NCBI GenBank assembly: GCA_963726745.1
Contig: CAVSDR010000006.1
Span: forward strand, 960,001 to 1,024,000
From: an uncultured Verrucomicrobiae bacterium
GTDB taxonomy: Bacteria > Verrucomicrobiota > Verrucomicrobiia > Chthoniobacterales > UBA10450
Length of the DNA stretch: 64,000 nt
Reading direction: 5' to 3'
Both the position numbers and the translations under genes were made by a program. The notes below the pieces were generated by a model. The model saw nothing but the letters and a program-made list of their open reading frames with translations. It did not search any database and was not told where the DNA came from. Below, piece by piece: positions 1 through 64,000 of this stretch (within the stretch, counting starts at the first letter, position 1; each line of letters begins with the position of its first letter).

Positions 1-1316
1 TGGCCAACCCGACCTACGCCGGCTTGCACGACAAGGCGCGGCGCTTCATCGAGGCGATCGCCGGGAAGAGCGCGGTGCAATTCGCGCACAAGGTCGAGGA
101 AGGCGTGAAAGGCCTGCTCGTCCCGAGCGTGATTTTCGAAGAGCTCGGCTTGCGTTACTACGGCCCGATCGACGGGCACGACATTCCGCTGCTCACCCGC
201 ACTTTCGAATTCCTGAAGACGCAGGACGAGCCAGTGCTGCTCCACATTCTCACGAAGAAGGGCAAAGGCTACGACCCCGCGTTGGCCAAGCCGGACAAGT
301 TCCACGGCCTCGGCAAATACAAGATCGAGAGCGGCGAAACCGCGGCTTCGCCTACGCCGACTTATTCGGAGTTGCTGGGGAAGACGCTGGCTAAATTTGC
401 CGACTCCAACAAGAACATCGTCACCATCACCGCGGCCATGCCCAGTGGCACCGGCCTTGGCCTTTTCCAGGCGCAACATCCCGATCGCTATTTCGACGTC
501 GGCATTGCCGAGGAACACGCGGCCCTCTTTGCCTGCGGTCTCGCGACCCAAGGCTTGAAGCCGTTCCTCACGATCTACTCCACCTTCATGCAGCGCGCTT
601 ATGACATGATCATTCACGACATCGCGCTGCAAAATTTGAACGTCGCGCTTTGCATGGATCGCGCCGGATTAAGCGGCGACGACGGTCCGACGCATCATGG
701 CCTGTTCGACATCGGCTACCTGCGCCACGTCCCTGGGATCGTGCACATGCAGCCGAAGGATGAGGACGAATTCATCGACATGCTCTGGACGATGGCGAAC
801 CACACCAGCGGCCCGATCGCGATTCGATACCCGCGCGGCGCCGGCACCGGCGCGCAGCCCAAACCCGAGCCGAAGCTGCTCGAGATCGGCAAGGCCGAAG
901 TCGTCCAACACGGCCGCGACGTCGCCATTTTCGGACTCGGAAACATGTTCGAAGTCGGCGAAGAAGCGGCGCGCAAACTCGAAGCGCAGGGCTATTCCGT
1001 CGCCTTGATCAACCCGCGCTGGATCAAGCCGCTCGATACCGGCACGCTCGAGTTCTTCGCCCGCGGCTGCCAGGTCGTGGCTACGCTCGAGGACCATGTC
1101 CTGCACAACGGTTTCGGCTGCGCAGTCATGGAACACCTCTCCGAAGCGCGCATCACCACGCCGGTCGTCCGCATCGGCTGGCCGGATCAATTCATCGAGC
1201 ACGGCACCATCCCGATCCTGCGCCAGAAGCATGGCCTAACGAGCGATGCGCTGGTGGAGAAGTTGCTGCCTCTGCTGCAGAAACCCACGCGCCAGCCGCA
1301 GCATAACGTTGCCTAG
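1..1316 (+). CDS. dxs: 1-deoxy-D-xylulose-5-phosphate synthase (5'-truncated by window edge)
   Basis: Motifs YYGPIDGHD, TKKGKGY, ITAAM, FDVGIAEEHA, IYSTFMQRAYD, DRAGLSGDDGPTHHG, IAIRYPRG; frame is open to the window start. Confidence 0.97.
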   Translation, partial: ANPTYAGLHDKARRFIEAIAGKSAVQFAHKVEEGVKGLLVPSVIFEELGLRYYGPIDGHDIPLLTRTFEFLKTQDEPVLLHILTKKGKGYDPALAKPDKFHGLGKYKIESGETAASPTPTYSELLGKTLAKFADSNKNIVTITAAMPSGTGLGLFQAQHPDRYFDVGIAEEHAALFACGLATQGLKPFLTIYSTFMQRAYDMIIHDIALQNLNVALCMDRAGLSGDDGPTHHGLFDIGYLRHVPGIVHMQPKDEDEFIDMLWTMANHTSGPIAIRYPRGAGTGAQPKPEPKLLEIGKAEVVQHGRDVAIFGLGNMFEVGEEAARKLEAQGYSVALINPRWIKPLDTGTLEFFARGCQVVATLEDHVLHNGFGCAVMEHLSEARITTPVVRIGWPDQFIEHGTIPILRQKHGLTSDALVEKLLPLLQKPTRQPQHNVA

Positions 1317-1406
1317 CGCCCCGGCTGCTCGAGTCTTCCAGGTCTGCGCGGGGCGCTTGGTTGCTCCTTGCGGGCGGGTTCATCTTCTCTCTCTTCGCAG
1401 AGCCAA

Positions 1407-2414
1407 ATGAGCGCGATCGAAGTCTCCGGCCTCTCCAAGGTCTATCGCACCTACCGCAAGGAAAGCGGGCTGCGCGGGGCGATCAAAGGGCTCGTCCGGC
1501 GAAAGTATGACGAGACGCGCGCGGCGGACAACGTCTCGTTTACGATCGAAGAAGGAGAATTAGTCGGCTTTCTCGGGCCAAATGGCGCGGGCAAGACGAC
1601 CACACTGAAAATTCTTTCCGGCTTGCTTAATCCGACTGCGGGCGAAGCGCGCGTGCTTGGCTTCATCCCATGGGAGCGGCGCAACGAAATGAAGCGCCAG
1701 TTCTCGCTCGTGATGGGGCAAAAAAACGCGCTCTGGTGGGATTTGCCGGCGCAGGAATCGCTCGAGCTAAATCGCGCAATCTACGGGATCGAGCGCGCGC
1801 GTTTCCAGAAAGTCGTCGGCGGCTTGAGCGAACTCCTGGAAGTAGGCGACAAGATGAACGTGATGGTGCGCGAGCTCTCGTTAGGCGAGCGCATGAAGAT
1901 GGAATTGATCTCGGCCTTGATCCATGAGCCGAAGGTCCTGTTCCTCGATGAACCGACTATCGGTCTCGACGTGGTCAGCCAGAAACGCGTGCGCGAGTTC
2001 CTGCGGGTTTACAACCAGGAGCACAAGATCGTGACCATGCTCACGAGCCATTACATGCAGGACATCGAGGAGCTGTGCGAGCGGGTGATCATCATCGATC
2101 ACGGGAAGATTTTCTTCGATGGCCCGCTCGAGCAGATCATCGATCGCTTCTCGATCGCGAAGATCATCTCGCTGACCTTCGAGGAAAGCGCCGCGCGCGA
2201 TTTCTCCGTCTTCGGCGAAGTGGTCGAGCAAACGCCGCTCTCGGTGCAGTTGAAAGTGCCGCGCGCGCAGGTCACGGAAGTGGCGCGGCAATTACTCGAC
2301 AATTGCAAGGTCACCGACATCAACGTGCAGGAGCTTCCGGTCGAGGAAGTGATCCGGCAGCTTTTCGGCGAGCGCTCCAGCCTGCAGAAAACGGCCGCGG
2401 CCGCGCCGGCTTAG
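1407..2414 (+). CDS. ABC transporter ATP-binding protein (ABC-2/DrrA-like); no permease adjacent
   Basis: Walker A GPNGAGKTT, signature LSLGERMK, Walker [13 protein letters not shown]-loop TSHYM; ATG at 1407. Confidence 0.92.
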   Translation: MSAIEVSGLSKVYRTYRKESGLRGAIKGLVRRKYDETRAADNVSFTIEEGELVGFLGPNGAGKTTTLKILSGLLNPTAGEARVLGFIPWERRNEMKRQFSLVMGQKNALWWDLPAQESLELNRAIYGIERARFQKVVGGLSELLEVGDKMNVMVRELSLGERMKMELISALIHEPKVLFLDEPTIGLDVVSQKRVREFLRVYNQEHKIVTMLTSHYMQDIEELCERVIIIDHGKIFFDGPLEQIIDRFSIAKIISLTFEESAARDFSVFGEVVEQTPLSVQLKVPRAQVTEVARQLLDNCKVTDINVQELPVEEVIRQLFGERSSLQKTAAAAPA

Positions 2415-2680
2415 AAACGTCTTACGAGAGCGCGCTTCAAGTCGTGCGCATACGCCGGGTTGACCTCGAATTGGAAGGTCGCCATTTCCGCGAGCGGCAC
2501 TTCTTCGGCGAACGGGATCGTGGTCACGTAGCCGGCGGAGATCAGGCTGTTCAAGGTATCGGCCACATCCTCCGCATCCATGTGCGAGCCCTCCTGGATT
2601 TCGCCGCCGAGGACGGCTTCGGCAAAGCCCATTGCCCGGACGACCGAGACCTCGCGGCCGGTGAGTTTGATCTGACGCAT
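2411..2680 (-). CDS. small hypothetical protein, possibly winged-helix-like
   Basis: 89-aa ORF with host-like codon usage; fills the gap between convergent genes. Confidence 0.6.
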   Translation of the reverse strand: MRQIKLTGREVSVVRAMGFAEAVLGGEIQEGSHMDAEDVADTLNSLISAGYVTTIPFAEEVPLAEMATFQFEVNPAYAHDLKRALVRRF

Positions 2681-2722
2681 GCGAAGCTTTTAGCAGCTTG
2701 CATACCCGAGCCGCCGGCGGCT

Positions 2723-3569: not shown

Positions 3570-3575
3570 CGCTCG

Positions 3576-4302
3576 TTAGTCCGTCGCCGCCGCGAGCTCG
3601 ATTTCCTCGAAGGCGATCGGCCTGGGTCGCGCGCACCTGGTGCAGCCGGATGAGCTCGAGCAGCGCCAGGAAAGTGACGACAATTTCCACGCGCGAAGCC
3701 ATCGAGGCGAAAAGCTCGGAGAAGCGCAGCGGCACGCCATCGGCCACGCGCTCGAGGATCCAGGTGATCTTGTCCGAGACGGTGTAATGCTCGCCGAAAA
3801 TCTCGGAGAGATTTTCCCGCGCCTCGATCCGCTTGATCACGTTCTGGAAGGCATTGATCAGCTGGAAAATCCCGACCTCGCCCAGACGCAAAGGCGCCAG
3901 GGCCAGCTCCGGCGCGACCGGTTCGCGCAGGAAAATGCGCTCCTGCTCGAGCTGCCGGACCTGCAGTTGCCCGGCAGCTTCCTTGAACTTTTTGTATTCG
4001 ATCAACTGCCGGATGAGATCCCAGCGCGGATCGTCTTCCTCCACGTCTTCCTCGGGCGGCTGCTGCTCCACCGGCAAGAGGCTGCGGCTCTTGAGATAAA
4101 TCAGGTTCGCCGCCATGACCACGAACTCGCCCGCGACATCGATGTTCAGCTCCTTGAACGCCTGGAGATACTCGAGGTATTGCTTCGTGATCCGCTCGAG
4201 CGAGATCTCGTAGATGTCGAGCTCGTCGCGCTTGATCAGGTAAAGCAGCAGATCGAGCGGGCCCTCGAAAATCTCGAGCTTAACTTTGTAATCGCTCTCC
4301 AT
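3576..4302 (-). CDS. scpA: segregation/condensation protein A, kleisin (apparent frameshift near 3615)
   Basis: FEGPLDLLLYLI, YLKSRSLLP, LIEYKKFKEAA, VVTFLALLEL; C-terminal FEEIEL lies in the shifted frame, ending at TAA 3576-3578. Confidence 0.92.
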
Positions 4303-6229: not shown

Positions 6230-7105
6230 TCATACGGCGAGGGTGTCGTTGCTACGTTCTTTTTGATGAGGTACCAAAGGGTTGTCGCGAGCAGCAGGGA
6301 GATCACCTTTGCGCGCCAATTCCTCAGGAGGATTTTCTTCATAGCTTCCGTGGAGCAGGAGTTCGCTCAGCCGTTTCCGGAATGTTTCCGGGGTAAAATT
6401 CCGCTCGATCCGTCGGCGATGGCAGATGGAAATGCCGCCGGTTTCTTCCGAGACGATGATCGCGATCGCGTCCGACTCCTCGGTAATCCCGAGCCCGGCG
6501 CGGTGCCGCAGGCCGAGACTGCGGTCGAGCGTTTCGCGCTGGCTCACCGGGAAAATGCAGGCCGCCGCGGCGATCCGGCCATTGCGCATGACCACGCCGC
6601 CATCGTGCAGCGCGCTCTTTGGGTGAAACAAGGTCAGCAAAAGCTCGACGGAAAAGACGGAGTCGAGCTCGACCCCAGTTTCCTCGTAGACGCGGATCGC
6701 GGTATCACGCTCGATCGCGATCAGCGCGCCGAATTGCTTGTTCGCCAGCTGCGTGACCGCCTCGCCGAGGTCGTGCACCGTCTCGCGTTTCTCACTCGTT
6801 AGGGAAAAGATCGGATGCCCGCCCAGCTCGGCCAGGCCGCGGCGCAGTTCCGGTTGGAAAATCACCACCAGCGCGACCGCGAGGAAGACCGAAAAGCTGC
6901 GGATGATCCAGCCGATCACGGTCAGGTTCAGCAGCTGCGAAATCAGGGTGAGCGTGAGGAAGACAATCGCCAGGCCGGTGAGCACCTTCGCGCCGCGGGT
7001 CCCGCGGAAATAGAGATAGCCGTAGTAGATCCCAACGCTCAGCAGGATGATCTCGAAAAGGCCGCGCCATTTTTCGAGCCAGAGCTGGAGGAGCTGTTGA
7101 ATCAT
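6230..7105 (-). CDS. cdaA: diadenylate cyclase (CdaA/DacA type)
   Basis: Three N-terminal TMs, FQPELRRGL, LHDGG (DGA-type motif), GLRHRA (RHR), VSEETG. Confidence 0.93.
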   Translation of the reverse strand: MIQQLLQLWLEKWRGLFEIILLSVGIYYGYLYFRGTRGAKVLTGLAIVFLTLTLISQLLNLTVIGWIIRSFSVFLAVALVVIFQPELRRGLAELGGHPIFSLTSEKRETVHDLGEAVTQLANKQFGALIAIERDTAIRVYEETGVELDSVFSVELLLTLFHPKSALHDGGVVMRNGRIAAAACIFPVSQRETLDRSLGLRHRAGLGITEESDAIAIIVSEETGGISICHRRRIERNFTPETFRKRLSELLLHGSYEENPPEELARKGDLPAARDNPLVPHQKERSNDTLAV

Positions 7106-8051: not shown

Positions 8052-10211
8052 TTGAAATCGAAAACTGAACTGAAGTCCGAGATTCTGCGCATCCTCGGCG
8101 CCCCGAAATACCGGCCGCTCGATAAAACCGAGCTCGCGAAAGCACTCCAGCGCAAGAGCGGCGAGCGCATGCAGCTCAACGAAATCCTGCGCGAGCTCGA
8201 GCGCGATGGCGACATCGCGCGCATCCGCAAGAACCGCTACGTCCTCCCGGCGGAAGCCGACCTCGTGACCGGCTCGCTCCATGTGCACCAGTCCGGTTTT
8301 GCCTTCCTCACGAACGAAGCCAAGCCCGGCGAGAAGGACCTGTTCATTCCCGCGGAAGCTACCGGCACCGCGATGCACGGCGACCGCGTGGTCGCGCGAA
8401 TCACCCGCGACGAGCAATATGCCCGGCACAAGGGCGCCTCCGCGCGCGCCGAGGGCCGCATCATTCGCATCCTCGAGCGCGCGCACGACACCATTGTCGG
8501 CACGCTCCAGCAGTCGCGAAATTTCTTCGTCGTCGTGCCGGATGACCCGCGGATCGTGCACAACGTCTACGTCCCCGCGCCGCAGAACCGGTCGGCTAAA
8601 GTTGGCGACAAAGTGGTCGTGCGCCTCGAGGCGTGGGAATCGCGCCACGTAAATCCTGAGGGCGAGATCGTGGAGAATCTCGGCTCTGCCTCCGCGCCCG
8701 GCGTGGACATGCTTTCGATCATCCGGAAGTTCCATCTGCCCACGGAATTTCCCGCCGCCGTCCTCGCCGAGGCCGAGCAGATCCCGGAGACGGTGGACGC
8801 GTCGCGTTATCCGGAGCGGGAAGATTTGCGCCGGCAGTTCATCGTCACGATCGATCCCGATGACGCGCGCGATTTTGACGACGCGATCAACGTGGAACGC
8901 CTGCCTGGCGGCGGCTGGAGCCTCGGGGTGCACATCGCGGATGTCGCTGCCTATGTCGCCCCCGGCTCCGCGCTCGATCGCGAGGCGGTCAAGCGCGGCA
9001 ACAGCGTTTACCTGCCCGACCGCGTGATCCCGATGCTGCCGGAGCGCCTGAGCAACGGCGTCTGCAGCCTGCGGCCGGACGTCGACCGCCTGACGCATTC
9101 CGTCTTCATCCAGTTCGATCGCGGCGGGAAGCCGCGGCAAACGCGCTTCGCCCGCACCATCATCCGGAGCGCGCGCCGCCTGACCTACCGCCAGGCTTTC
9201 GCATTCTTGAAGTCGCCGCCTAACGACCAGTTGAGCGAGCGCCTCCATGTCGCCTGGGAGCTGGCTTCGCTCCTGCGCAAAAAACGTTTCCAGCAGGGCT
9301 CGCTCGATCTCGATTTCCCCGAGGTGAAAGTCCGCCTCGATGCCGAGGGCAAGCCGGTCGAGCTCGAGCGGATCGAGAACGACGAGTCGCACCAGCTGAT
9401 CGAGGAATTCATGCTCGCGGCCAACGAAGCGGTCGCGCAGGAATTAAAGAACAAGCTCATGCCTTCGGTCTACCGCGTGCACGAGAATCCGGATCCGGAT
9501 AAGCTGGCGGACTACCGCGAGCTCGTCCTGAGCTACAACTACAAGGCGGGCGATCTCACCCAGCGCACCGAACTCCAGCGTCTCCTCGCTTCCTTCCGCG
9601 GAAAGCCGGAGGAACAGGCGCTCAAGATCGGCCTGCTCAAGAGCCTGAAGCGCGCGCGTTACGCGGTCCAACCGCTCGGGCATTACGGATTGTCGAAGGT
9701 CAATTACACGCATTTTACCAGCCCCATCCGGCGCTACGCCGACCTCGTGGTCCACCGCTCCCTGGCGGAACTCGGGTCCGGCCGGAAAGCGCGCGGCGAC
9801 CTCGGGCAACTCGGGTCGCTCGCGGAACACATCTCGATCACCGAGCGCAACGCGGCCGAGGCCGAGATCGAGGCGGTGAAGCTGAAGAAGCTCGAGTATT
9901 TCCAGCGCCAGCTGGAGGCGAAGGAACCGCAGGTCTTCCGCGCCTCCATTCTCGAGGTGAAGAACTTCGGCCTGGTTGTGGAGTTGCCCGATGTGCTCCT
10001 CTCCGGTTTGATCCACGTCTCGTCGCTGACGGACGATTTTTATCACTACAATCCGGCGCAGCGAAAACTCGTCGGCCGGCAATCTCACCGGCAATTTTCC
10101 GTGGGCGACGAAGTGCGTGTGCGGGTTGCCCGGGTCGATACCTTCAAGCGCCAGGTCGACTTCGCTCTGGTCGATGAACGGCCCGCAAAAGCTCCCCGGG
10201 GTCGACGTTAA
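8052..10211 (+). CDS. rnr: ribonuclease R
   Basis: Cold-shock domains, RNB core TIDPDDARDFDDAI, HFTSPIRRYADL, C-terminal S1. Confidence 0.95.
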   Translation: MKSKTELKSEILRILGAPKYRPLDKTELAKALQRKSGERMQLNEILRELERDGDIARIRKNRYVLPAEADLVTGSLHVHQSGFAFLTNEAKPGEKDLFIPAEATGTAMHGDRVVARITRDEQYARHKGASARAEGRIIRILERAHDTIVGTLQQSRNFFVVVPDDPRIVHNVYVPAPQNRSAKVGDKVVVRLEAWESRHVNPEGEIVENLGSASAPGVDMLSIIRKFHLPTEFPAAVLAEAEQIPETVDASRYPEREDLRRQFIVTIDPDDARDFDDAINVERLPGGGWSLGVHIADVAAYVAPGSALDREAVKRGNSVYLPDRVIPMLPERLSNGVCSLRPDVDRLTHSVFIQFDRGGKPRQTRFARTIIRSARRLTYRQAFAFLKSPPNDQLSERLHVAWELASLLRKKRFQQGSLDLDFPEVKVRLDAEGKPVELERIENDESHQLIEEFMLAANEAVAQELKNKLMPSVYRVHENPDPDKLADYRELVLSYNYKAGDLTQRTELQRLLASFRGKPEEQALKIGLLKSLKRARYAVQPLGHYGLSKVNYTHFTSPIRRYADLVVHRSLAELGSGRKARGDLGQLGSLAEHISITERNAAEAEIEAVKLKKLEYFQRQLEAKEPQVFRASILEVKNFGLVVELPDVLLSGLIHVSSLTDDFYHYNPAQRKLVGRQSHRQFSVGDEVRVRVARVDTFKRQVDFALVDERPAKAPRGRR

Positions 10212-12222: not shown

Positions 12223-12232
12223 CGTCGACTCG

Positions 12233-45013: not shown

Positions 45014-45040
45014 GCTGCGCCGCGGTGCGGCTACTGCTCG

Positions 45041-45274
45041 TTAGGCGCCGTCGGCGCCGATGGCCTCGACCGGGCAGCCTTCCATCGCTTCCTTGCAGAG
45101 GGCTTCCTCGTCGGGCGATTCCGGCTGCTTGTAGACAAAGGAATGGCCGCCGTCGTCGTTCCGCTTGAAGTTCGCGGGTGCGGTTTCACGGCAGAGATCG
45201 CAGTCGATGCACTGGTCGTCCACGTAGAAAGTGCCGCCTACGTTTTCGGGATATTTGTTTGCTGCGTCAGCCAT
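45041..45274 (-). CDS. single-cluster ferredoxin
   Basis: CIDCDLC...CPVEAI. Confidence 0.92.
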   Translation of the reverse strand: MADAANKYPENVGGTFYVDDQCIDCDLCRETAPANFKRNDDGGHSFVYKQPESPDEEALCKEAMEGCPVEAIGADGA

Positions 45275-51360: not shown

Positions 51361-52528
51361 ATGGCCGGCCTCGTCATCAAACCCCGCGCGCGCATCCTCC
51401 ATGGCCACGACTGGGTCTTCACCGGCGAAGTCCTGAAGGCGTTTGGCAACCCGGTGGACGGCGAGGTCGTCTCGCTCAAGGACGGGAAGGATCGCTTGTT
51501 AGGCAGCGCGATCTACAACAGCAAGTCGCAGATCGTCGCGCGGCGTTTCTCGCGCAAACGCCAGGAGCTCGACCTCGATTTTTTCCAGCGCCGAATCGCG
51601 CAGGCGCTGGCATACCGCGAACGCCGCGGGATCGATCCACGTCTTTGCCGCCTCGTCTGGAGCGAGAGCGACGGGCTTCCCGGCGTGATCGTCGACCGCT
51701 ACGGCGATCACCTGGTGCTGCAGACGCTCACCCTCGCGATGGACCAGCGGAAGGCGCTCATCGTCGAAGCGCTGCGCACGCTCGGGCCGCGCGCGATTAT
51801 TGAGCGAAACGATGCCAGCGTCCGCCGGGCCGAGGGGATGGAGCTGCAAACCGGCGTGCTCTTCGGCGAGGCGCCGGGAGAGATCGAGCTCGAGATCGGC
51901 GGGCTGCGTTTCGTGGTCGACCTCCTGCAGGCGCAAAAGACCGGCTTCTACCTCGACCAACTGCCGCACTACCGCGCGGTCGCGGAGTTCTTCCAAGGGC
52001 AAACGCGTGCTCGATTGCTTTACCAGCCAGGGCGCCTTTGCGCTCGCTTGCGCGAAGGCCGGCGCCGAAACCGTGATCGCGGTCGAGGGCAGCAGCGAGA
52101 GCCTGGCGGCGGCGCGCGCCAATGCGGAGCGGAATGGGCTCAAGGTGAATTGGGTCGAGCAGGACGTCTTCGATTTCCTGCGCGCGGCCGAGAAGGCCGA
52201 GGCGCAATACGACCTGATCATCCTCGATCCGCCTTCCTTCACCAAGACCAAGGGCGGCTTGCACAACGCCCTGCGCGGTTATCGCGAGCTGCACGTGCGC
52301 GCCTTCAAGTTGCTCTCGAAGGACGGGATGCTCGCGACTTTTTCCTGCTCGCACCACGTGGGCGAAAACGCCTTTGCCCAGATGCTGGCCGATGCGCTGG
52401 TCGATGCCCACCGCTCCGCGCGCCGCCTCCGGCGCTTCGAGCAGGCGCTCGATCACCCGGTGCTCCCGACTTTGCCGGAGACGGAATATTTCAAGGGCGT
52501 CCTCCTGGAGATGATGCCGGGTCGTTAG
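51361..52528 (+). CDS. RlmI-like SAM-dependent rRNA methyltransferase (apparent frameshift near 51990)
   Basis: PUA-like GHDWVF, ESDGLPG, QKTGFYLDQ, VLDCF, LDPPSF, SCS. Confidence 0.9.
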
Positions 52529-52536
52529 GCAGCAAG

Positions 52537-53249
52537 ATGATGGACCCGGAAAATTTAGACAACGAGTTCGCCGCGCTCGCGCCCTGGATCTTCCAGTTCC
52601 GCATCGGTGCGCGCGATTTTGGCGGCGGGATCAGCGCGGTGGGCGATGAACGCCTGGCGCAGTTTTGGAGTTTCGCGCCCGCGCGCGCGCCGCATCCTCG
52701 AGCTCGGTTCGCTCGAAGGCGCGCACACCGTGCAACTCGCGGCCCGGCCGGGAGTGGAGGAAGTGGTCGCGATCGAAGGGCGCGCGGCTAACATTCGCAA
52801 AGCCGAACTGGTCACGCGCCTGCTCGAAGTGCGGAACGTGCGCTACGTCGAGGCGAACCTGGAGACGACCGACCTCCTGGCGCAGTTCGGCCGCTTCGAC
52901 GCGATCTTTTGCTCCGGCCTGCTTTATCACCTGCCGGAGCCGTGGAAGCTGATCGAGCAATTCCCGCAGTGTCGCGCCTTTGCTCTTCGTCTGGACGCAT
53001 TACTCCGATGACTTGATCGCCAACGAAACCCGCCACGAAATGCGCGGGCAGGTGCACGTGGAAGGCGGGCCGGACGAGCCGCTCAGCGGCATGTCTGCGA
53101 CCGCGTTTTGGCCAACGCTTGGATCGCTGACCAAGCTGCTCACGCGTTCCGGTTACCGCACGATCGAGTTCATCCGTCACGACCCGACGCATCAGAATTC
53201 CCCCGCGATCACTTTCGGCGCGCGGACTGCGGATTACCTCGACGCCTAA
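52537..53249 (+). CDS. class I SAM-dependent methyltransferase (two apparent frameshifts near 52685 and 52970)
   Basis: PWIFQF, ILELGSLEG, AIEGR..N, FDAIFCSGLLYHL..P; three consecutive frames join. Confidence 0.8.
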
Positions 53250-53252
53250 CGA

Positions 53253-54054
53253 ATGCAGTGGTTCATCGGGATCAACGAAGGCTGCCCGGCCTGGAAGCAG
53301 TATGCCGACATGGCCAAGGTGGCGATCCACACCGCCCTCCGGCATACGCAGCTTGAGCCGCATTGCCTTTACGATGGCGGCGAGAATGACTTCACCGCCT
53401 GGCTCCGGCGGCGCGGCGTGCGGATTATCCCGTGCGAGAGTTTCCTCCGTCCGGAGCTGGCGCAACTGGCCGACCGGATGGGCAATCCCGAGCTCCTGCC
53501 GGCAACGCGCGGGGTCTTCCTCCGGGTGGAATTGCCCTCGCTGCAGGAGCGCCTGGGCCTCGACGACCGCGTGCTTTACACCGATTGCGACGTGATCTTT
53601 CGCCGCGACGTGGCCGAGATCTTGTCGGCTAACGAGTGCAAGTATTTCGCGGTCGCAGTCGAGTCGGACCGCACTTTAGCCGACGACATGAACTCGGGAG
53701 TGATGTGGATGAATCTCCCGGCGATGCGCGCGCGCGACGCGGAGTTTCGCGCGTATCTCCGGGAGAACATCGACGCGCTCCCGGCGATGAGTTGGGATCA
53801 GGGCGGCTACCGGAATTTCTACCGCTCGGCGGAAGGCCGGCCGCTCTGGGACACGCTCTCGCCGGAAATGAACTGGAAGCCGGTACTGGGGCGACGAGGC
53901 TTCGGCGCGAATCGTGCATTTCCACGGGCCGAAGCCGTTCCAGCAGCCTTACATCGACTCGCACTACCAGGAGTTGAAGTTCCTCACCGGCGGCGCCTAT
54001 GCGGAGGTTTGCGCGGAGTGGGCTGAGCTCCTGCGCGAGGCCGACGCGGCCTAA
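53253..54054 (+). CDS. GT8-like glycosyltransferase (apparent frameshift near 53880)
   Basis: LYTDCDVIF (DxD), NSGVM, WDQG, NWKP then YWG...HFHGPKP in the shifted frame. Confidence 0.8.
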
Positions 54055-54060
54055 CGAGCG

Positions 54061-55083
54061 CTACTTTTCCGCAACCGCGAAAAGATGCAGGTGCACCGGG
54101 ATGCCTTCCGGCATCCTTAGGGGATGCGGCGCGTAGCTGGTGACTTCCACCGTTCGAAAATGCCGCTGGAGAAGGGCGCGCAAGCTTGCGCGGGTGAAGA
54201 AGTTTTTGTGATCCGCCTCGAGCAAATGCCACGGCACCACCTGCCAGGCGCTGAAGTAGGGAATGACCTCGAGATTCGGGACCGAGAAGAGCGCCCGGCG
54301 GCGGATGGAACGCGCGATCTCGCCGAGAAAAACCTCCGGCGCAGCGATGTGCTCCAGCACTTCCACGCAGATGGCGTCGTCAAATTCCCCGTCCGCACAG
54401 GGCAGATGGGCGCCTTCGACTTTGCGAAAGGGCAACCCGCGCCGCTCGAGTCGCGCCCAGCAATCCGGCGTCACCTCAAGGCCAGTCCACGCATGGCCCG
54501 CGGCGAGCAGCGCCGGTCCATACGCGCCTGCGCCGCAGCCGACGTCGAGCACGGAACCGCCCGCGGGGAGATGTTGTTCGAGCAACGAAAGCGTTTCGCC
54601 ACCCGGCGTTTCCACCGGCGGACCGGAACCGTAAATGCGGTCGCGCGGAAGCACCTCCTCTTGCTCGGGGTGAACCACGTCGCCATAGGGGCGCGTCTCC
54701 AGTTGCGCGGAAACGAGCGTCACCTCCGCAGTCGCCATCTTGCTGGCTAAATTTTCCCCAGGCCACTCGGCGGTCACGGTGAGCTCCGCGGTTTCTGCCG
54801 GTCCCGCGGCGCGCGCCAGGATGCGGAAGCCAGTCGGCGTGTCCGCGGGCAATTGCATCGCCGCGCAAACATCCGGCCTAACGAACAGTAGCCGCGTCTC
54901 CCCCACGCACGCGCCGTTGACCCAGGCGCGCACCAGGCAGGCAGCGGGATCGCGCTCCGGCGCCCAGAGCCAGCCGCTGAGCAGGAACGCTTCCGCGAAG
55001 AGCTTCTCGCCGGCGCGCGGTTCATCGAGGTAAGCCGTGGCCCCCTCGAGCATCGGCCAGGATGGGAGCGCGGCATCGGGCAT
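54061..55083 (-). CDS. class I SAM-dependent methyltransferase with N-terminal Ig-like (RPDV) domain
   Basis: VLDVGCGAG, FD...CVEVLEH, SVPN; N-terminal GW...RPDV...GF. Confidence 0.85.
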   Translation of the reverse strand: MPDAALPSWPMLEGATAYLDEPRAGEKLFAEAFLLSGWLWAPERDPAACLVRAWVNGACVGETRLLFVRPDVCAAMQLPADTPTGFRILARAAGPAETAELTVTAEWPGENLASKMATAEVTLVSAQLETRPYGDVVHPEQEEVLPRDRIYGSGPPVETPGGETLSLLEQHLPAGGSVLDVGCGAGAYGPALLAAGHAWTGLEVTPDCWARLERRGLPFRKVEGAHLPCADGEFDDAICVEVLEHIAAPEVFLGEIARSIRRRALFSVPNLEVIPYFSAWQVVPWHLLEADHKNFFTRASLRALLQRHFRTVEVTSYAPHPLRMPEGIPVHLHLFAVAEK

Positions 55084-55235: not shown

Positions 55236-55859
55236 ATGGCCGAACGAATCCGACCGATCGAACAGATGCTCGAACTTAACGAAGGCGAAGCCGGTTCCAC
55301 GGAGCATCTCGACTCGCAGGTCCAGAAGGCGCAGGAGCAATTGCTCGTGCTCAAGCGCCAGCAGGAGCAGATCGAGAAACAAAAGCGCGAGCTCGAGGAA
55401 TTGAGCCGCCGCCAGGAAGAGCTGGAGCGCGGCCGCGCGGAAATGACCGACAAGCTCACGCGCTCGCTCGTCGTCCTGGAGCGCGAAGCCTATGACTCGC
55501 AGAAGAAGCTCGAGCAGATTCGCGCGACCCGCGAGAGCTTCGAGCAACACCTCGAACTGCTCGAGGCGATCGATCCGAAGAGCTGGAACCAGGCGGACCT
55601 GCACAAGGAATTAAGTCGCTCCCTAAGCACGGTGGACGATGCGCGCACCGAGTTTAGCCAGCAACGCAGCCGCCTCTCCGCGACCACGAGCGACGACCAT
55701 GGCGAAGTGGCGCTCCCAGACGCGGCCTCCGACTCCTCGTTAGGCGGGAGCAACAATTTCGTCCAGTGGATGCAGATCGGTTTTGCCTTCACCTTGCCGC
55801 TGATCGTCCTCGGGCTGATCGCGCTCCTGCTCGTCTTCCTCCTCGTCCCGCGCGCCTAA
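55236..55859 (+). CDS. coiled-coil protein with C-terminal TM
   Basis: E/Q/K/R-rich heptads; C-terminal hydrophobic helix. Confidence 0.8.
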   Translation: MAERIRPIEQMLELNEGEAGSTEHLDSQVQKAQEQLLVLKRQQEQIEKQKRELEELSRRQEELERGRAEMTDKLTRSLVVLEREAYDSQKKLEQIRATRESFEQHLELLEAIDPKSWNQADLHKELSRSLSTVDDARTEFSQQRSRLSATTSDDHGEVALPDAASDSSLGGSNNFVQWMQIGFAFTLPLIVLGLIALLLVFLLVPRA

Positions 55860-56518: not shown

Positions 56519-57950
56519 CGCCATCGATCGCGGAAGCGCGCGCACTTCTGCAGGCGGGCGAAGTTTCCTCGCGCGAATTGCTCGAGACGCTGCATGCGCG
56601 GATCGAGGAACTCGATCCCCAGCTCGGTGCTTATCTTTCGCGCGACCTGCCCGCGGCGCTTCGCGAGGCGGAGCGCGCCGATCTTAGCCAGCCACTTGGC
56701 GGCGTGCCGATCGCGCTCAAGGACAACCTCAATCTCCAGGGCCAGCCCTGCACTTGCGCCTCGCGCATGCTGGCAAATTTCCAATCGCCCTACGACGCCA
56801 CGGTTGTGCAAAAGCTCCGCACGGCGGGCGCGATCCCTTTCGGCAAAACCAATCTCGACGAGTTTGCGATGGGTTCCTCGACCGAGAACTCGAGCGTGCG
56901 CCCGACGTTGAATCCGTGGGATCGCACTCGCGTGGCCGGCGGCTCGAGCGGCGGTTCGGCGGTCGCAGTCGCGGCGGGGCTGGCGATTGGCTGCGCTCGG
57001 CACGGACACCGGAGGCTCGGTGCGACAGCCGGCGGCCTTTAACGGCATCGTCGGCCTGAAGCCAACCTACGGCCGCGTCTCGCGTTACGGCGTGGTCGCT
57101 TACGCTTCTTCGCTCGACCAGGTGGGACCGATGACGCGCGACGTGCGCGATGCCGCGCTCGTGCTGAACGCGATTGCCGGACACGATCCGCACGATTCTA
57201 CTTCGCTGCGGGAAACAGCCGGCGACTTCACCGCGCTCCTCGGCCGCGATTTGCAGGGCGTGCGCCTGGGCGTGGCCCGCGAGCATGCGCAACCCGGGAC
57301 CGATCCGCAGGTGCAGGCGGCGGTGGAGGCCGCGGCGCGGCAATTGGAGTCGTTAGGCGCGGAGCTCGTGGAAATTTCCCTGCCGCATACCGAGGTCGAC
57401 GGTGGCGACCTATTACCTCCTCGCGACCGCCGAGGCGTCGGCTAATCTCGCGCGCTACGATGGCGTGCGTTACGGCCATCGCGCGGAGCAGCCGCGCGAT
57501 CTCCTGGAGCATTACACGCGCACGCGCGCGGAAGGGTTCGGCGCGGAAGTGAAGCGCCGCATTCTCCTCGGCACCTATGTGCTCAGCGCCGGCTATTACG
57601 ACGCCTACTACCTGCGCGCGCAAAAGGTGCGCACGCTCATCCGGCAGGATTTCGCGCGCGCCTTCGAGCAGGTGGATGCGATCCTCTCGCCGACTTCGCC
57701 GGTCCCGGCGTTCAAGCTCGGGGCGCACACGGCCGATCCGCTGCAGCTTTATTTAGCCGACATTTTCACCGTGCCGGCGAATCTCACCGGGCTGCCCGCG
57801 CTGAGCGTGCCGTGCGGTTTCGCGGAAGTGGAGGGAGCGCGCCTGCCGATCGGCCTGCAACTTATGGGGGACGCGCTCGACGAAGCGCGCCTCTTGCAAA
57901 TCGCCTACGCCTACGAACAAGCGACGGATTGGCATCGCGCCCGGCCATGA
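56515..57950 (+). CDS. gatA: Asp/Glu-tRNA amidotransferase subunit A (apparent frameshifts near 56985 and 57398)
   Basis: [55 protein letters not shown]. Confidence 0.94.
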
Positions 57951-59197
57951 GGAGCCCGCGTCATTTCCGGCTGCTCGCGGCGCTCTTCGCGCTCGTGGTC
58001 ATGACCTTTTCCGCGATCGCAATTGCGAATGCGCTCCTGCCCGGAAAGACGATCAAGGACTACGAGCTCTGGCATGCCACCGGCCAGCAGATGCTCCACG
58101 GCGAGGCGATCTACCCGGAGAAACGCGGCGCGAAATTCGACTTCATGTATCCGCCGGCCGCAGCCGCGTTGCTCGCGCCGGTGAGCTTGCTCGGGCGCAC
58201 CGGTGTGGTCGTGGCGTTGGCGGCGATCACAGCAGCCGCGTGGCTTGCGAGCATCCTGCTCTCGGTGCGCCTGGCGACAGGCAAATGGGGGCGGCAACAC
58301 TTCCTGCTCTACGCGCTCCCGAGCCTGCTCGTGATCGTTTACGTCTGGAGCAATTTCCACATCGGCCAGCCGAGCCTCGTGCTCCTCGCGCTGCTGCTGG
58401 GCGCGTTTCTCGCGCTGCAAACTTGCCGGCAAATTTTAGCCGGCGCGCTCATCGCGCTCGCCGCGGGGATCAAGGCCTTCCCGTTTGTCGCGATCGTTTA
58501 TCTGCTTTATCGCCGCTACTGGATCGCGGCTGCCTCGCTCCTGCTCGCGCTCGTGCTGCTGCTTTTCGCGTTGCCCGCGGCCTTCCGCGGAATCGATGGC
58601 GCGCGCGCCGATCTTGTCCGCTGGACCGAGGGGATGCTCTTGAAATACGACGAGAAAGGCGTGGCCCAGCGCCCGGGCCGGAGCAATTCCTGGAAGAACC
58701 AAAGCATCTTCGGCGTGGCCAATCGCCTCCTGCGGCACATCGATGCGGACGAGCAATACAACCGCCACGTGCCGATCTACGTGAACCTGGCCGACCTGAG
58801 TTTCACCGCGGTGAACCGCATCGTCGTTGGCACCGGTTTGCTTCTTGGACTGGTCTATCTCGCGGTCATGCCGCGACGCGATCGGCGCACCCGCGAGAGC
58901 GATGCGCTGGAGTTTGCGCTCTTCCTGCTGCTCCTGCTCATGTTCACGCCGCTGGCCTTTGGTTACCTCTTCGCGACACTGCTTTATCCGTTTACCGTAG
59001 TCGTGGCGCGCCTGCTCGCGCGGCCGCAGCGTTCGCTCTGGATCGCCGCAGGAATTGCCGTCGCGCTGCTCGCGCTCACGCTGCCCTTCCAGCGCGGGGC
59101 GCAACTTTACGGGAACACCTTCCTCGCCACGCTCACCCTTTTCCTCGGCCTGGCTTGGGAGCTTTGGCGGCTGAAGCGCACCCCGCCCGCGGCCTAA
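57947..59197 (+). CDS. GT87 (DUF2029) polyprenol-phosphate-dependent glycosyltransferase
   Basis: KDY, FMYPP, GQ, IKAFP, NQS; multi-TM; ATGA overlap with gatA. Confidence 0.85.
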
Positions 59198-59904
59198 CGA
59201 CTCCGCCGCCGGAAGACTGCCGCGAGCCAGCGGAGCGCGAAGATCGCGGCCACCCGGAAGCTCATCTTCGAGGCCCCGCGCGCGCGGTCGCGGAAAGCGA
59301 TTGGGATTTCGATTACGCGCAGCTTGGGCCGGCCATGGACGATGATCTCGAAGGCTATTTTGAAACCGGTCGCGGCGGAGGCGAGTGCGAGGAGCGACTC
59401 GCGCCGGATGGCGAAGAAGCCACACATGGAATCGTGCACGCCGGTCAGCGGGTAAGCCATACCGGCGGCCACGCGCGACATCGCCCGCCGAGGCAACGGC
59501 CAGCCTGGCGTGGTCCCGCCGCGGACATAGCGGCTGCCGATAACCATGTCCGCGCGGGCTTCGGTGATTGGTCGGATTAACTCCGGGATGCGCTCCGGCG
59601 GATGGCTCAAGTCGGCATCCATGACCACGAGCAAGTCGCCGCTCGCAGCCTTTGCCCCGGCGATGACCGCGCCAGCCAAGCCGAGCGTGGGCGCGTGGCG
59701 CTCGAGCAAGCGCACGGCGTGCGCCGCTCCCAGGGCGCGGACGCGGGCTTGCGTGCCGTCAGTTGAGCCATCGTCGACCACGATGATCTCGCGGCAGTCC
59801 GGCATCGCCTGGAGAATTTGCCTAACGAGCGGTTTGACGTTCTCCGCCTCGTTCAAGGTCGGCACGATGACCGAGAGCGTTTGCGCGGCGATAGGAGGCG
59901 GCAC
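59194..59904 (-). CDS. polyprenol monophosphomannose synthase-like GT2
   Basis: VIVPTLNEAEN, VVDDGSTDGT, MDADLSHPP, GSRYV.GG, F.DR..G.SKM; GTG start inferred. Confidence 0.9.
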   Translation of the reverse strand: MPPPIAAQTLSVIVPTLNEAENVKPLVRQILQAMPDCREIIVVDDGSTDGTQARVRALGAAHAVRLLERHAPTLGLAGAVIAGAKAASGDLLVVMDADLSHPPERIPELIRPITEARADMVIGSRYVRGGTTPGWPLPRRAMSRVAAGMAYPLTGVHDSMCGFFAIRRESLLALASAATGFKIAFEIIVHGRPKLRVIEIPIAFRDRARGASKMSFRVAAIFALRWLAAVFRRRSR

Positions 59905-61151: not shown

Positions 61152-62844
61152 CTCTCCCGGTCTTCTCGAGGAGCGACCGCACTAGCTTCATCCGCTCCTT
61201 GAGCGCGCGGCGCGTGCGGAGGCGCTTCATGGTGAAGCGGAGGCGCTGGCTCCAGTTCGAATCGGCCGCGGTCCCGGGGACGTTGAAACGCTCGGTCCCG
61301 CCGAGCAGGTCGGTGATCATGACGATGGCCATCCAGGAATTGCTCCGGAAAAGGCCGCGCAAGCTTGCCGGGTAAAAGTCGCGCTCGTAGTCCGGCGTTC
61401 TCGCCGAGGGCTTCGATCCCCGCAAAGCGCGCGATCTTCTCGAGATCGCCGCGGGCTTGTTCGCGCGTCGGGCTTTCCGGATCGAAAGCTTCGTCCCACA
61501 GCGCGCGCATCGGCTTGTGATCGTGCGTAGCGTAGGTCGCGACCGAGAGCCGCTCGTATTCCTCGCCCGGGGACGATCCGGCCATCCGGCGTGCTCTCCC
61601 ACTGCGGAATCTTGAAGCCGGCTAATGCCTAACGACTGCAAGCTTGGCCGCACGTAAGGCGGCACCGTGCCGAGGTCCTCGCCCACGAGCCGCGTGCTCC
61701 CGGCGGCTTCCAGGGCCATGCGCAAATATTCTTCGCCCTCGCGGCGATTCGCCGCGGCGCGGTCCGGCGCTTCGTCATCGCGCGGTGCGAAGCCGGGGGC
61801 GCGGCCGCCGGTTTTTTCCAGCATCTCTTCGCACGACAACGGGAGAAACTCGGGATTCCGCTGCGGCCGCCAGGGGAAGGCGTAGATCCGGTAGAAGCCG
61901 AGCACGTGATCGATCCGGAAGACGTGAAAGATCCGCCGCACCCCGCGCACGCGCTGCCGCCACCAGGCGAAGTCATGCGCCCGCATTGCCTCCCAATTAT
62001 ACAGCGGGATGCCCCAGTTTTGCCCCCACTTCTGGGTGAACTCGTCGTCCTTGAAGTAAGGCTCCGGGGGCGCGCCGCCCGACCAATCGAGCTTAAAACG
62101 ATCGGGCCAGGAGTAGACGTCGGCGCTGTAGTAGCTCACGCCAAAAGGGATGTCGCCCATGAGTGCGACGCCACGCTCGTCGGCATAATTTTTCACTGCG
62201 ATCCACTGGTCGTAGGCGAGCCATTGGACGTAGCGGAAAAATTGCGCGCGCTCCGCGAAACGCTCCTGCGCTGCGGCCGGCTCCGCTTTCAGCCAGGCAT
62301 GCGCCGCTTCCACCGACTGGTGCTCTTCCCGCCAAAGATCCCAGGCTTCGCTCTCGCCGTTCTCCTCCATGAGCACGCGGAAAAAGACATAAGGCTCGAG
62401 CCAGGAGGCTTCCTTTTCGCAGAAAGCAGTGAAGCTCTCGGCGGCATCCGCGCGCCCTTGGAAACGGGCGAAAGCTTTCTCGAGCAAGGCGCGCTTGAGC
62501 TTCCGCACCTCCCGGTAGCTCACTGGTCCCGTGCGCAATTTAGCCAGCGAGATGGCGGCCAGAACCTCATCGTAATCCTCCTGCGTGAGGTCCTCTGGTG
62601 AGCCCGGGGCAAGATGTAAGGTCAGCGGCTCGATCGCAGTCGCGCTGATCGCATTGTAAGGGCTGTTGTCCCCGCCGGTTTCGTTGATCGGCAGGAGCTG
62701 CACGAGCTTGAACCCAATACTCGCGGCCCAGTCGACGAACTGCCGGAGCGCCGCGAGGTCGCCAATCCCGAGATCGTCCTCCGTGCGCAAGGCGAAGAGC
62801 GGAGTGAGCACGCCGGCTATTTTTTGGTCAGGGGAGAGGGTCAT
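61147..62844 (-). CDS. malQ: 4-alpha-glucanotransferase, GH77 (two compensating apparent frameshifts near 61622 and 61400)
   Basis: GIGD, QLLPIN, SPY, GDIP.GV, GAPP, GQNWG.P.Y, RIDH.LG, GEDLG, THD in shifted frame, NVPGT...NW. Confidence 0.92.
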   Translation of the reverse strand: MTLSPDQKIAGVLTPLFALRTEDDLGIGDLAALRQFVDWAASIGFKLVQLLPINETGGDNSPYNAISATAIEPLTLHLAPGSPEDLTQEDYDEVLAAISLAKLRTGPVSYREVRKLKRALLEKAFARFQGRADAAESFTAFCEKEASWLEPYVFFRVLMEENGESEAWDLWREEHQSVEAAHAWLKAEPAAAQERFAERAQFFRYVQWLAYDQWIAVKNYADERGVALMGDIPFGVSYYSADVYSWPDRFKLDWSGGAPPEPYFKDDEFTQKWGQNWGIPLYNWEAMRAHDFAWWRQRVRGVRRIFHVFRIDHVLGFYRIYAFPWRPQRNPEFLPLSCEEMLEKTGGRAPGFAPRDDEAPDRAAANRREGEEYLRMALEAAGSTRLVGEDLGTVPPYVRPSLQSLGISRLQDSAVGEHAGWPDRPRARNTSGSRSRPTLRTITSRCARCGTKLSIRKARRANKPAAISRRSRALRGSKPSARTPDYERDFYPASLRGLFRSNSWMAIVMITDLLGGTERFNVPGTAADSNWSQRLRFTMKRLRTRRALKERMKLVRSLLEKTGRV

Positions 62845-62850
62845 TTGGGT

Positions 62851-62930
62851 CCACAGATTACGCAGATTTCACGGATTGTTTTACCAACAGATTCACCTCA
62901 TAGAACTGCGCTCATCGGCGGGATCTGTGG
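62851..62930. repeat. degenerate inverted-repeat element built from 9-bp tandem units (CACAGATT/ATCTGTG)
   Basis: CCACAGATT ACGCAGATT TCACGGATT ... AACTGCG ATCGGCG ATCTGTGG. Confidence 0.7.
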
Positions 62931-62936
62931 GACAAC

Positions 62937-64000
62937 TCACCGCCGCGAGACCTGCCAGTCTTCGAGGAGCTCGGTTGGGATCTCTTTCAGGAAGCGCGAG
63001 GGGCGCTGGAACATCTCGCCGTAGCCGGCGTTCAGGCGCATGTGCGGGTAGGTCAGATAAAGCTCGTCGCGGGCGCGCGTGACCGCGACGTAAAACAGCC
63101 GGCGCTCTTCCTCGATCGCTTCGCGGGTGTCGAGCGAGCGGGTGCTGGGAAACATCCCATCGGTCAGCCAGATGACGAAGACGGTGTGATACTCCAGGCC
63201 TTTCGCCTGGTGCACGGAGGAAAGGTTCACCGCTTCCTTGTCCTCGTTAGGCTGCGGCGCGGCCTCGGCGTCGACGTTGCTGATCAAGGCGAGCTGCGCG
63301 AGGAACTCGTTCACGTCTTTGAACTGCCGCGAGAAAGCTGCGAGCTGGTTCAGGTCTTCGCGCCGGAGCTCGTAGTTGCTGAAGTTCGCCTTGGCGTAGT
63401 CGTCGTAGATCGCTTCCACGATCGAGGTGATCATTTCCGCGGGCGGGTTCGGCACTCCGCCCGGCGCGATCTCGTCCAAAGTGTAGGCTAATTGCTCCCA
63501 CGATTTCTTCGAGCGCGCGCCTACCGGCAACGCGCGCAGGCGTTCGCCCCAGTTCTTCAGGTCGCCGTCCGCCTCGAGCGATTTCTCCCAGGCGCTCCAG
63601 AGCCCGTCGGCGCTTTTGTTCCCGATACCGGGGAGAAGCTTCACCATCCGCTTGAACGCCACTTCGTCGCGCGGGTTGGCCACGAAGCGGATGAAGGCGG
63701 CCACGTCCTTGATGTGCGCCTGCTCGAAGAAACGCACCCCGCTGGTGATCTGGTAAGGGATGCCGCGGCGCGAGAGTTCGAGCTGCAGTTCGACCGCGTG
63801 ATAATGCGCGCGATAAAGCACCGCGATCTCGTCCAGCTCGATGCCTTCATCGCGCAACTCCAGGATGCGCTGCGCGACGAAGCGCGGCCTGCTCGCCGCC
63901 ATCGTTCAAGCGCCACCACCGCGGGCTTGAGCTCATTCGTCGGCGCGCGTGGAGCTGAGCTCTTTTTTGAACTGCTCCACGTTCGGCGCGATCGCTGCGT
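62937..64000 (-). CDS. UvrD/PcrA-family ATP-dependent helicase (5'-truncated; apparent frameshift near 63890)
   Basis: IAVLYRA, FFE..HIKD, LPGIG, LSSVHQAKGLEY, EERRLFYVAVTRA, PSRFL.EI. Confidence 0.92.

Follow-up and report, generated by a model that had tools for sequence, protein, structure and literature searches.

A nine-letter word in the window

The window analysed here is a stretch of 64,000 nucleotides (G000:C6:960,001-1,024,000) from an uncultured Chthoniobacterales bacterium (Verrucomicrobiota), whose source assembly, G000, comprises 3.41 Mb in 7 contigs at 63.7% GC. Its conspicuous feature is a non-palindromic nine-letter word, GCCTAACGA, of which an exact match search finds 29 copies (18 on the + strand, 11 on the - strand), whereas 100 dinucleotide-preserving shuffles contain 0.35 copies on average and at most 2. 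This search reproduces the count and every coordinate of a preliminary description made from the sequence alone, which had put the chance expectation at about 0.4 copies. With one mismatch allowed the window holds 45 matches against 11.1 expected, and these include the six variant sites named in that description (6796, 28486, 31123, 37310, 50011 and 51496) together with 10 further ones.

Copies of the word lie within genes in both orientations. On the + strand they occur at 1234..1242 in a + strand gene ending at 1316, at 9218..9226 in an RNase R-like gene with an RNB domain (8052-10211), at 24126..24134 in a class II aldolase gene (23957-24550), at 26496..26504 in a PTS EIIA gene (26129-26596), at 38669..38677 in a TonB_2-domain gene (38226-39074), at 42732..42740 in a peptidase S41 gene (42430-43518), at 48454..48462 in an open reading frame (ORF) with a metallo-beta-lactamase fold (48269-49861), and twice in the PEPCK gene (29166..29174 and 30018..30026), where both copies read P-N-E. 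Those on the - strand include 20091..20099 in an aldo/keto reductase gene (18495-20318), 50374..50382 in an alpha/beta-hydrolase gene (49261-50625), 55737..55745 in a gene whose family is unassigned (55236-55859), 57350..57358 in an amidase fragment (56987-57445) and 63244..63252, which is sense to a UvrD_C helicase gene on the - strand (62937-63902). The two UvrA-like ORFs carry four copies, one at 31689..31697 on the + strand (ORF 30253-32793) and three on the - strand at 33371..33379, 34484..34492 and 34865..34873 (ORF 32399-35923), and the UvrD-like gene carries one. Antisense copies are found on the + strand in three - strand genes, namely a methyltransferase gene (54876..54884, gene 54061-55083), a GT2 glycosyltransferase gene (59820..59828, gene 59194-60009) and a 4-alpha-glucanotransferase gene (61627..61635, gene 61147-62844). 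The antisense copy at 1878..1886 on the - strand encodes S-L-G in the LSLGE signature of an ABC ATPase (1368-2414), a gene that contains RELSLGERMKMEL and uses the codons TCG-TTA-GGC for these three residues.

Other copies occupy gene ends and spacers. As the preliminary description had proposed, some of them supply stop codons: the TAA of the - strand copy at 45038..45046 ends a ferredoxin gene (45041-45274, - strand), the TAG read on the + strand from the - strand copy at 52522..52530 ends a methyltransferase gene (51800-52528), and the TAA of two + strand copies ends an ORF (53244..53252, ORF 52980-53249) and a GT87 gene (59192..59200, gene 57812-59197), the last also overlapping the end of the - strand GT2 gene. 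Three further + strand copies are intergenic, lying in a convergent spacer between gene ends at 20318 and 20359 (20333..20341), between a gene end at 37774 and a gene start at 37804 (37792..37800), and in the spacer 54026-54061 (54049..54057).

Among the near-matches are several that belong to variant classes enriched throughout the genome. The position 8 G>A variant GCCTAACAA (43-fold enriched genome-wide) occurs at 28486..28494 on the - strand and again at 37310, 50011 and 51496; the position 2 C>G variant GGCTAACGA (39-fold) occurs at 12230..12238 on the - strand and at 53627 on the + strand; and the position 1 G>C variant CCCTAACGA (59-fold) and the position 2 C>A variant GACTAACGA (42-fold) are found on the - strand at 6796..6804 and 3573..3581, respectively.

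Two of the genes that carry the word appear to be interrupted. The region 30253-35923 contains two overlapping UvrA-like ORFs of 846 and 1,174 amino acids, and a public contig lacks one base at 32394 whose deletion would put both in frame, so this arrangement probably reflects a single, very long double-UvrA gene with a frameshift introduced in assembly. An amidase gene at 56201-57445 is apparently broken across up to three successive ORFs, of which the only one scanned (56987-57445) matches positions 145-281 of the 445 positions of Amidase; this pattern suggests frameshift errors or a pseudogene.

Genome-wide abundance of a DNA-level signal

The word is found throughout the genome. G000 contains 1,312 copies of GCCTAACGA (681 on the + strand, 631 on the - strand), or 0.385/kb, and all 7 contigs carry it at 0.32-0.53 copies/kb. 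It ranks second among the 9-mers of G000, and the ten-letter form GCCTAACGAG (820 copies) is the top 10-mer. At greater lengths, the commonest 12-14-mers are hexamer tandem repeats with the units GCCAAC (about 140 copies) and CCGACT (about 55). An order-3 Markov model predicts 19.7 copies of the word, and only 5.3 once sites within two mismatches are masked. For the 927 copies counted in coding sequence (CDS), synonymous-codon shuffles within called genes yield 16-27 (about 21; 10 runs) and codon-order shuffles 4-10 (5 runs). Observed counts are therefore far above both the Markov and the codon-shuffled nulls against which the preliminary description had suggested they be measured, although frame and coding counts here are approximate because the genes were called with a crude, purpose-made caller.

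Several reading frames accommodate the word. The 926 copies wholly within called genes divide into 422 sense and 504 antisense, with two frames used in each orientation. The S-L-G reading (antisense frame 0) accounts for 422 of them, x-L-T-x (sense frame 1) for 220, P-N-E/D (sense frame 2) for 202 and V-R (antisense frame 1) for 82. Another 130 copies overlap gene ends, where the TAA or TAG of the word is the stop codon, and 256 are intergenic; both stop-generating frames are used at gene ends only. The codons concerned are rare in G000, with TTA and CTA making up 2.9% and 1.5% of Leu codons and AGG 1.9% of Arg codons. The word accounts for 14.8% of the TTA and 15.1% of the CTA codons in called genes. 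This bears out the earlier suggestion that the word is written in several frames by means of otherwise rare codons, as in the LSLGE signature.

Preferences also extend beyond the ninth letter, with G favored at position 10, T favored and G avoided at position 11, T avoided at position 13, and A or T favored at position 14. Because these flank preferences are identical in intergenic copies, they are part of the DNA signal. The word reaches 0.41-0.50/kb in spacers, compared with 0.33/kb in CDS. Artefact, codon usage and a peptide motif are each ruled out as explanations by the frames, the intergenic copies, the codon shuffles and the spread of the word through the family (see below). The signal acts at the level of DNA rather than of peptide or RNA.

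No replichore polarity was found in G000 at any scale examined. Besides the overall split of 681:631, bins of 50-100 kb are each near 50:50, and adjacent copies are co-oriented in a fraction of 0.503, so the replichore skew that the preliminary description had thought might recast the word is not seen. Copies are also spaced more evenly than chance would have them. Only 47 gaps are shorter than 250 bp, where 121 would be expected, and those of 250-2,000 bp are over-represented 1.1-1.3-fold; just 1.6% of sites have another copy within 100 bp, compared with 7.6% of random points. The two largest word-free gaps, C7:60,030-95,400 (35 kb) and C6:413,728-437,792 (24 kb), have a low GC content (0.59-0.60) and are polysaccharide or O-antigen islands encoding DegT aminotransferases, glycosyltransferases, Wzy, Wzz, an ABC-2 transporter and exosortase. 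Depletion in islands, another expectation stated in advance, is thus observed for these two, which are the islands examined.

A strict core with graded flanks

Single-letter variants of the word, with enrichment computed on a masked background, reveal how strictly each position is kept. The 27 one-off variants pooled amount to 1,123 occurrences, fewer than the 1,312 perfect copies. Variants at positions 1, 2 and 8 are 16-59-fold enriched, save TCCTAACGA at 3.6-fold, and the A>G variant at position 9 is enriched 5-fold. Those at positions 3-7 stay at background, 0.4-1.8-fold, except GCATAACGA (3.9-fold) and GCCTAATGA, which has zero copies. This background level at positions 3-7 defines a strict core, CTAAC, with graded flanks. 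Of the 2,782 CTAAC pentamers in G000, 2,187 fall within CTAAC[GA]A. A single directed repair step is disfavored as the source of the word, because near-cognates have not been drained.

Distribution among relatives and turnover of sites

We surveyed 151 genomes from 36 genera of one Chthoniobacterales family, which may be the GTDB family of Candidatus Udaeobacter (genomes are labelled G, genera g and families f). The tallies take in the unpublished genomes G001, G008, G032, G036, G043 and G162, and no conclusion rests on those alone. Nearly all of the 151 genomes and most of the 36 genera are enriched in the word, with a maximum of 4,336 copies in 3.2 Mb (G079). All 18 other genomes in the genus of G000 are enriched (138-2,291 copies, compared with 20-118 for a control word), and density spans about 15-fold within this genus; in genus g1, copy numbers run from about 160 to about 2,400. 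A few genera of the family, g19 (13 genomes), g36 and g46, are word-poor and lie near the control. Each of 12 sister families of the order has 0-19 copies, fewer than of the control word. The conservation in related genomes that the preliminary description had proposed to look for is therefore family-wide, and its concern that the enrichment might be confined to the window is answered both by this spread and by the presence of the word on every contig of G000.

In all, about 170 family assemblies other than G000, many of them in several hundred contigs, carry the word, which is thus not an assembly artefact. As for its presence in other read data, also raised earlier, one short contig of the public soil run X1 covers the site at 29166 without alteration. 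X1 was the only public holder; short contigs of low depth in it cover 17% of the words sampled, and it may be the window's own sample, so the support it lends to this site is weak.

Individual sites turn over continually. When 312 sites were sampled from six relatives, 148 mapped onto G000 over the motif, of which 37 were identical in G000, 20 were gapped and the remainder differed mostly by 2-5 letters, so that only about a quarter of the mapped sites are shared by position. Both PEPCK sites of the window are common to only one close relative (L005), and other lineages use other columns of the alignment. These sites replace variable residues without any insertion or deletion, as in the PPNE at 29166..29174, where relatives have PPDE, PPAH or PPKH. 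A transposon footprint or insertion is ruled out, since the sites arise by substitution. New sites arise continually where residues are under little constraint, at the ends of genes and in intergenic spacers, and existing ones are continually lost. The low densities within the genus are about those to be expected if a once-dense word had decayed neutrally, given a DNA identity of roughly 75-79%.

One sister-family genome that otherwise lacks the genome-wide word, G022, has four exact copies and additional variants packed into about 3 kb next to the end of a contig (G022:C2:640583-643004), none of which is in an attC site. This cluster may have been transferred from the word-rich family, or it may reflect mis-binning of that family's DNA.

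Additional hyper-abundant words

A second word, roughly SAWNKYGYYGGCTAAWT (GYYGGCTAAWT), is also abundant in G000, where the pattern G[CT][CT]G[GT]CTAA has 1,348 matches. It occurs in both gene orientations and in several frames, and is likewise a DNA-level signal in this genome. Within the genus (19 genomes), only G000 (479 copies) and G015 (127) are enriched in its core GCTGGCTAA. The second word is present in the window as well, for instance at PEPCK alignment column 236. We ruled out that the two words are interchangeable, since copies of the second do not avoid those of the first.

A different word accompanies GCCTAACGA in G056 (= G175; genus g39; 2.9 Mb), which carries 4,653 copies of AAGATCGACA, or 1.6/kb, beside about 0.55/kb of GCCTAACGA. 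Copies of AAGATCGACA are equal on both strands of G056 DNA (for example at loci L105-L111 and L004). AAGATCGACA occurs in G179 too, and a related genome has 1,052 copies. No hyper-abundant word of this kind was found within 52 kb of a sampled g19 genome. By eye, AAGATCGACA and the second word of G000 partly resemble attC sequence (CAAGATC), but the resemblance is at about chance level and the comparison was dropped.

The word is identical to the 5′ end of a local attC family

A search of G000 for tracts dense in CTAAC returned a single tract, at C6:735-747 kb, which contains a cassette array (G000:C6:736,573-744,893; L135:4573-12893). The array has 14 attC sites on the same strand, each 119-127 nt long, with short cassettes. 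Its elements are 235-750 bp apart, with two larger gaps, and each runs from RYCTAAC-GAGAAC to CATCGCMTG-GTTAGRY. In 11 of 13 successive pairs, the R′ box is the reverse complement of the next R′′ (by eye), and such matching between neighbors is a signature of circular gene cassettes. When 21 elements from three genomes are aligned, they share an R box, a spacer that stays unpaired, a bulged L box and a variable loop; 22 pairs make up the consensus fold, and 8 of these show compensatory changes. In the integron literature attC sites have the consensus RYYYAAC (R′′) and GTTRRRY (R′) within a characteristic architecture, and it is this architecture that the aligned elements have. No integrase is encoded by the 9 ORFs flanking the array, and no match to TIGR02249 exceeds the cut-off anywhere in G000. 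The array is therefore of the type formed by clusters of attC sites lacking integron integrases (CALIN).

Letter for letter, GCCTAACGAG is the first 10 bases of this local attC family (R′′ box GCCTAAC plus GAG), and the reverse complement of the word contains the core site GTTAGGC. We estimate the chance that a random 9-mer contains RYYYAAC on either strand at about 0.6%. The same attC family is present in four other genomes: G022 (sister family f5) has an array and one site 456 bp from an integron integrase, G053 (family f1, genus g36) has four sites near an integrase, G056 (family f1, genus g39) has one site near an integrase, and G023 (sister family f6) has left ends only. Genome-wide, G022 contains just 19 copies of the word, 7 of which were verified to lie in attC sites, and G053 contains 13. 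Because the attC form is present where the genome-wide word is not, it is probably the older of the two. In the stretches examined near integrases of G021, G026, G030 and G119, no attC site was recognised, which is no proof of absence.

The lone copies that make up most of the 1,312 in G000 are not attC sites, as they have no partner R′ box, no L box and no hairpin of 57-141 nt; they avoid one another below 250 bp and sit in conserved genes that show no insertions. Neither is the integrase a correlate of word abundance. TIGR02249 matches above the cut-off occur in 25 of 43 genomes tested, including 8 of 12 sister families and the word-poor genera g19 and g36, and across these 43 genomes we see no association. 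No integrase above the cut-off was found in the word-rich genomes G000 (7 contigs), G079 and G067 (about 20 contigs each) and G088, in assemblies where integrase genes are often at contig ends. The preliminary description had called the word undescribed. Among the papers listed on the word itself, on uptake and competence in Verrucomicrobia and Udaeobacter, and on attC sites and integrons, judged by titles and abstracts, we likewise found neither a description of the word, which turned up in unrelated contexts, nor a link between an uptake word and attC; what had been missed is the identity with the attC R′′ box, which alters the sense in which the word is undescribed and adds a rival reading.

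Discussion

One large family of soil Chthoniobacterales (Verrucomicrobiota) carries GCCTAACGA(G) as a signature word at the level of DNA. A position-independent force that reads double-stranded sequence keeps the word at 0.1-1.4 copies/kb, on any strand and in any gene or frame. The nature of this force is less certain. The best fit, which we favor tentatively and at somewhat less than an even chance, is that the word serves as an uptake tag similar to the DNA uptake sequence (DUS) of Neisseriaceae or the uptake signal sequence (USS) of Pasteurellaceae. If so, a component of the DNA-uptake machinery would bind the word preferentially, fragments from kin that bear it would be taken up and recombined more often, and the resulting molecular drive would fill the core genome with the word. 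This reading fits the size of the word, its density, its strand symmetry and frames, its even spacing, the excess of perfect over one-off copies, its family scope combined with site turnover, and its poverty in islands. Since the word is identical to the 5′ end of attC, the specificity of the reader was probably taken from, or tuned to, integron cassettes.

The word shares several features with known uptake sequences. Neisseriaceae DUS are also non-palindromic words of 9-12 letters, present at about 0.4-1.4/kb, equal on both strands and placed inside genes in tolerated frames; they too are family-wide with differences between lineages, poor in islands, and found alongside type IV pilus and competence genes. 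Pasteurellaceae USS have a nine-letter core with weaker flanks (here G at position 10, T at 11 and A or T at 14), and in USS, as in G000, perfect copies exceed one-off copies, spacing is even, and the amino acids altered are weakly constrained residues. G000 encodes ComEC, DprA and a weak ComEA-like match, and 6 PilT-family ATPases, 3 secretins and 16 prepilin-type genes are over the cut-off. The ComEC gene itself (G000:C6:231809-234352) contains 3 copies of the word in 2.5 kb.

Several observations nevertheless weigh against an uptake tag. About half of DUS and USS copies are in terminators, many as inverted pairs, whereas the word in G000 has no association with terminators or inverted pairs: only 2 opposite-strand pairs within 60 bp occur among the 1,312 copies, and convergent, divergent and tandem spacers are alike in density (0.41-0.50/kb). 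Genome-maintenance and uptake genes offer single examples of the word (four copies in the UvrA-like ORFs, one in the UvrD-like gene and three in ComEC); counts per gene look near Poisson given gene length. USS flanks consist of AT-rich tracts in helical phase, and no such tracts are seen around the word in G000. The receptor of Neisseriaceae DUS is the minor pilin ComP, whereas in this other phylum no ComP-like receptor was identified, and none of the 16 prepilin-type genes, the ATPases or the secretins in G000 was linked to the word. ComEC was rejected as a correlate, having no association with the word; 142 of the 151 family genomes have it, among them all 13 from the word-less g19, and this near-universal presence implies that the competence genes are permissive rather than specific. 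These bacteria, furthermore, are known only from metagenome-assembled genomes. Finally, DUS dialects lie 1-2 letters apart, whereas the extra words here are unrelated to the first. The second hyper-abundant word of G000 is species-specific and is placed without avoiding the first, and in a relative AAGATCGACA at 1.6/kb coexists with GCCTAACGA; with several words in one genome, one uptake receptor is insufficient as an explanation. The lack of terminator pairs and the coexistence of several unrelated words do not fit the uptake model. Thus the DUS-like, self-recognition interpretation of the preliminary description has come through the tests of polarity, null models, spread and islands and stands as a candidate, partly supported, although the competence genes do not track the word.

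A more specific possibility, which we consider unlikely though worth stating, is that the word is a self-DNA tag which this globally common soil family copied from integron cassettes. An uptake or import component would have evolved to grab the attC 5′ end (GCCTAACGAG), favoring cassette capture, and biased recombination would then have written the word into the entire core genome, at about one copy per 1-3 kb. Under such a scheme, the extra lineage words (GYYGGCTAAWT, and AAGATCGACA in g39) would imply a fast-evolving, multi-copy reader family, with several tags per cell.

Alternatively, a conserved orphan DNA methyltransferase could target the word, with selection keeping it for chromosome organisation or for methylation-dependent processing of transforming DNA, as is now proposed for the cyanobacterial highly iterated palindrome HIP1 (GCGATCGC), although we regard this as rather unlikely. 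HIP1 is hyper-abundant inside genes, conserved beyond neutral expectation and was long without known function (PMC5861425), and the enrichment scale, location within genes and partial positional conservation of our word resemble it. HIP1 has since been tied to transformation: methylated HIP1 is reported to raise transformation (10.1101/2024.09.10.611283), and HIP1 is hypothesised to be an uptake sequence (PMC13756078). G000 encodes one beta-class adenine methyltransferase, two or three gamma-class fragments and one C5 DNA methyltransferase, and no Dam-type (PF02086) gene was found in it. The beta-class enzyme (G000:C3:981,068-982,042; L132:15068-16039) has no restriction-like neighbor. Of 29 family genomes tested, 28 encode it (65-76% identity), as against only 1 of 12 sister families, with a weak match of 28%. 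Its distribution matches the family, yet the word-poor genera g19 (10 of 10), g36 and g46 have it too, so we rejected it as a correlate of the word. Moreover, HIP1 is palindromic, has cognate methylases and exhibits a periodicity of 10-90 kb, whereas the word in G000 is asymmetric, has no known methylase and shows no 5-200-kb periodicity on the two 1-Mb contigs (C3, p = 0.47; C6, p = 0.57).

It is also conceivable, though we think it improbable, that a helicase-nuclease or another defence or repair nuclease reads the word at DNA ends as a Chi-like self marker, switching from degradation to recombination and so sparing the cell's own DNA. Like Chi and the FtsK-orienting polar sequences (KOPS), the word is an over-represented asymmetric word of the core genome. 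It is frequent, family-specific and missing from islands, and at its density a break anywhere would have a site in the right orientation no more than about 5 kb away. However, Chi and KOPS are polar with respect to replication, being skewed toward the leading strand, and the word in G000 has no strand polarity at all. Its enrichment of 67-250-fold, for a word of 9-10 letters, is also far above that of known Chi sites. A PDDEXK_1 search of the 94.7%-complete G000 returned one weak match (31.8 bits, in a 470-amino-acid ORF), and hence there is no obvious RecB, AddA or AddB; RecC and AdnAB were not searched.

Given the attC identity, one might propose instead that lone R boxes (GTTAGGC) are bound or cut as half-sites by the integron integrase or a related tyrosine recombinase, and act as secondary sites or as a binding sink. 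In addition to the match of the word to the R′′ box plus GAG, the tolerance profile mirrors variation among attC sites, with positions 1-2 free and CTAAC strict, and outside the family the word lies partly in cassette arrays (7 of the 19 copies in G022). We nonetheless find this explanation very improbable. Integrase genes are present in most of the sister families that lack the word and in word-poor g19 and g36, and, allowing for genes at contig ends, were not found in the word-rich genomes noted above. The sites are made by substitution rather than by insertion, lone copies sit in housekeeping genes and outnumber true attC sites by 1,312 to 14 in G000, and the insertion of cassettes at 900 sites in coding sequence would be deleterious. 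The hairpin repeats described in PMC11893778 are rarely inside genes and are another kind of element. Least credible of all is a neutral mutational or repair bias, in which very-short-patch-like repair turns near-cognates into a functionless word, for while such a force would act on DNA regardless of gene or strand, as observed, one-off variants of the strict positions remain at background levels instead of being drained (GCCTAATGA excepted), the enrichment of variants at three positions fits graded recognition, the non-word sequences aligned to sites in both directions between G000 and its relatives are 2-5 letters off, and the avoidance between copies below 250 bp is not predicted.

Uptake sequences have so far been described for two families only (10.1101/2025.10.24.684340); both families are proteobacterial, and cyanobacterial HIP1 has recently been proposed as a third case. 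The several unrelated and partly species-specific words reported here are not explained by a picture of one receptor and one word, and they may point to a new family of readers. Because the main word is identical to the end of an attC site, a coupling of uptake specificity with cassette capture is directly testable. If the uptake-tag reading is true, the word would provide a handle for binning genomes, for detecting transfer (as perhaps at G022:C2:640-643 kb) and for designing DNA that these bacteria accept, and self-preferring DNA exchange would be widespread in soil.

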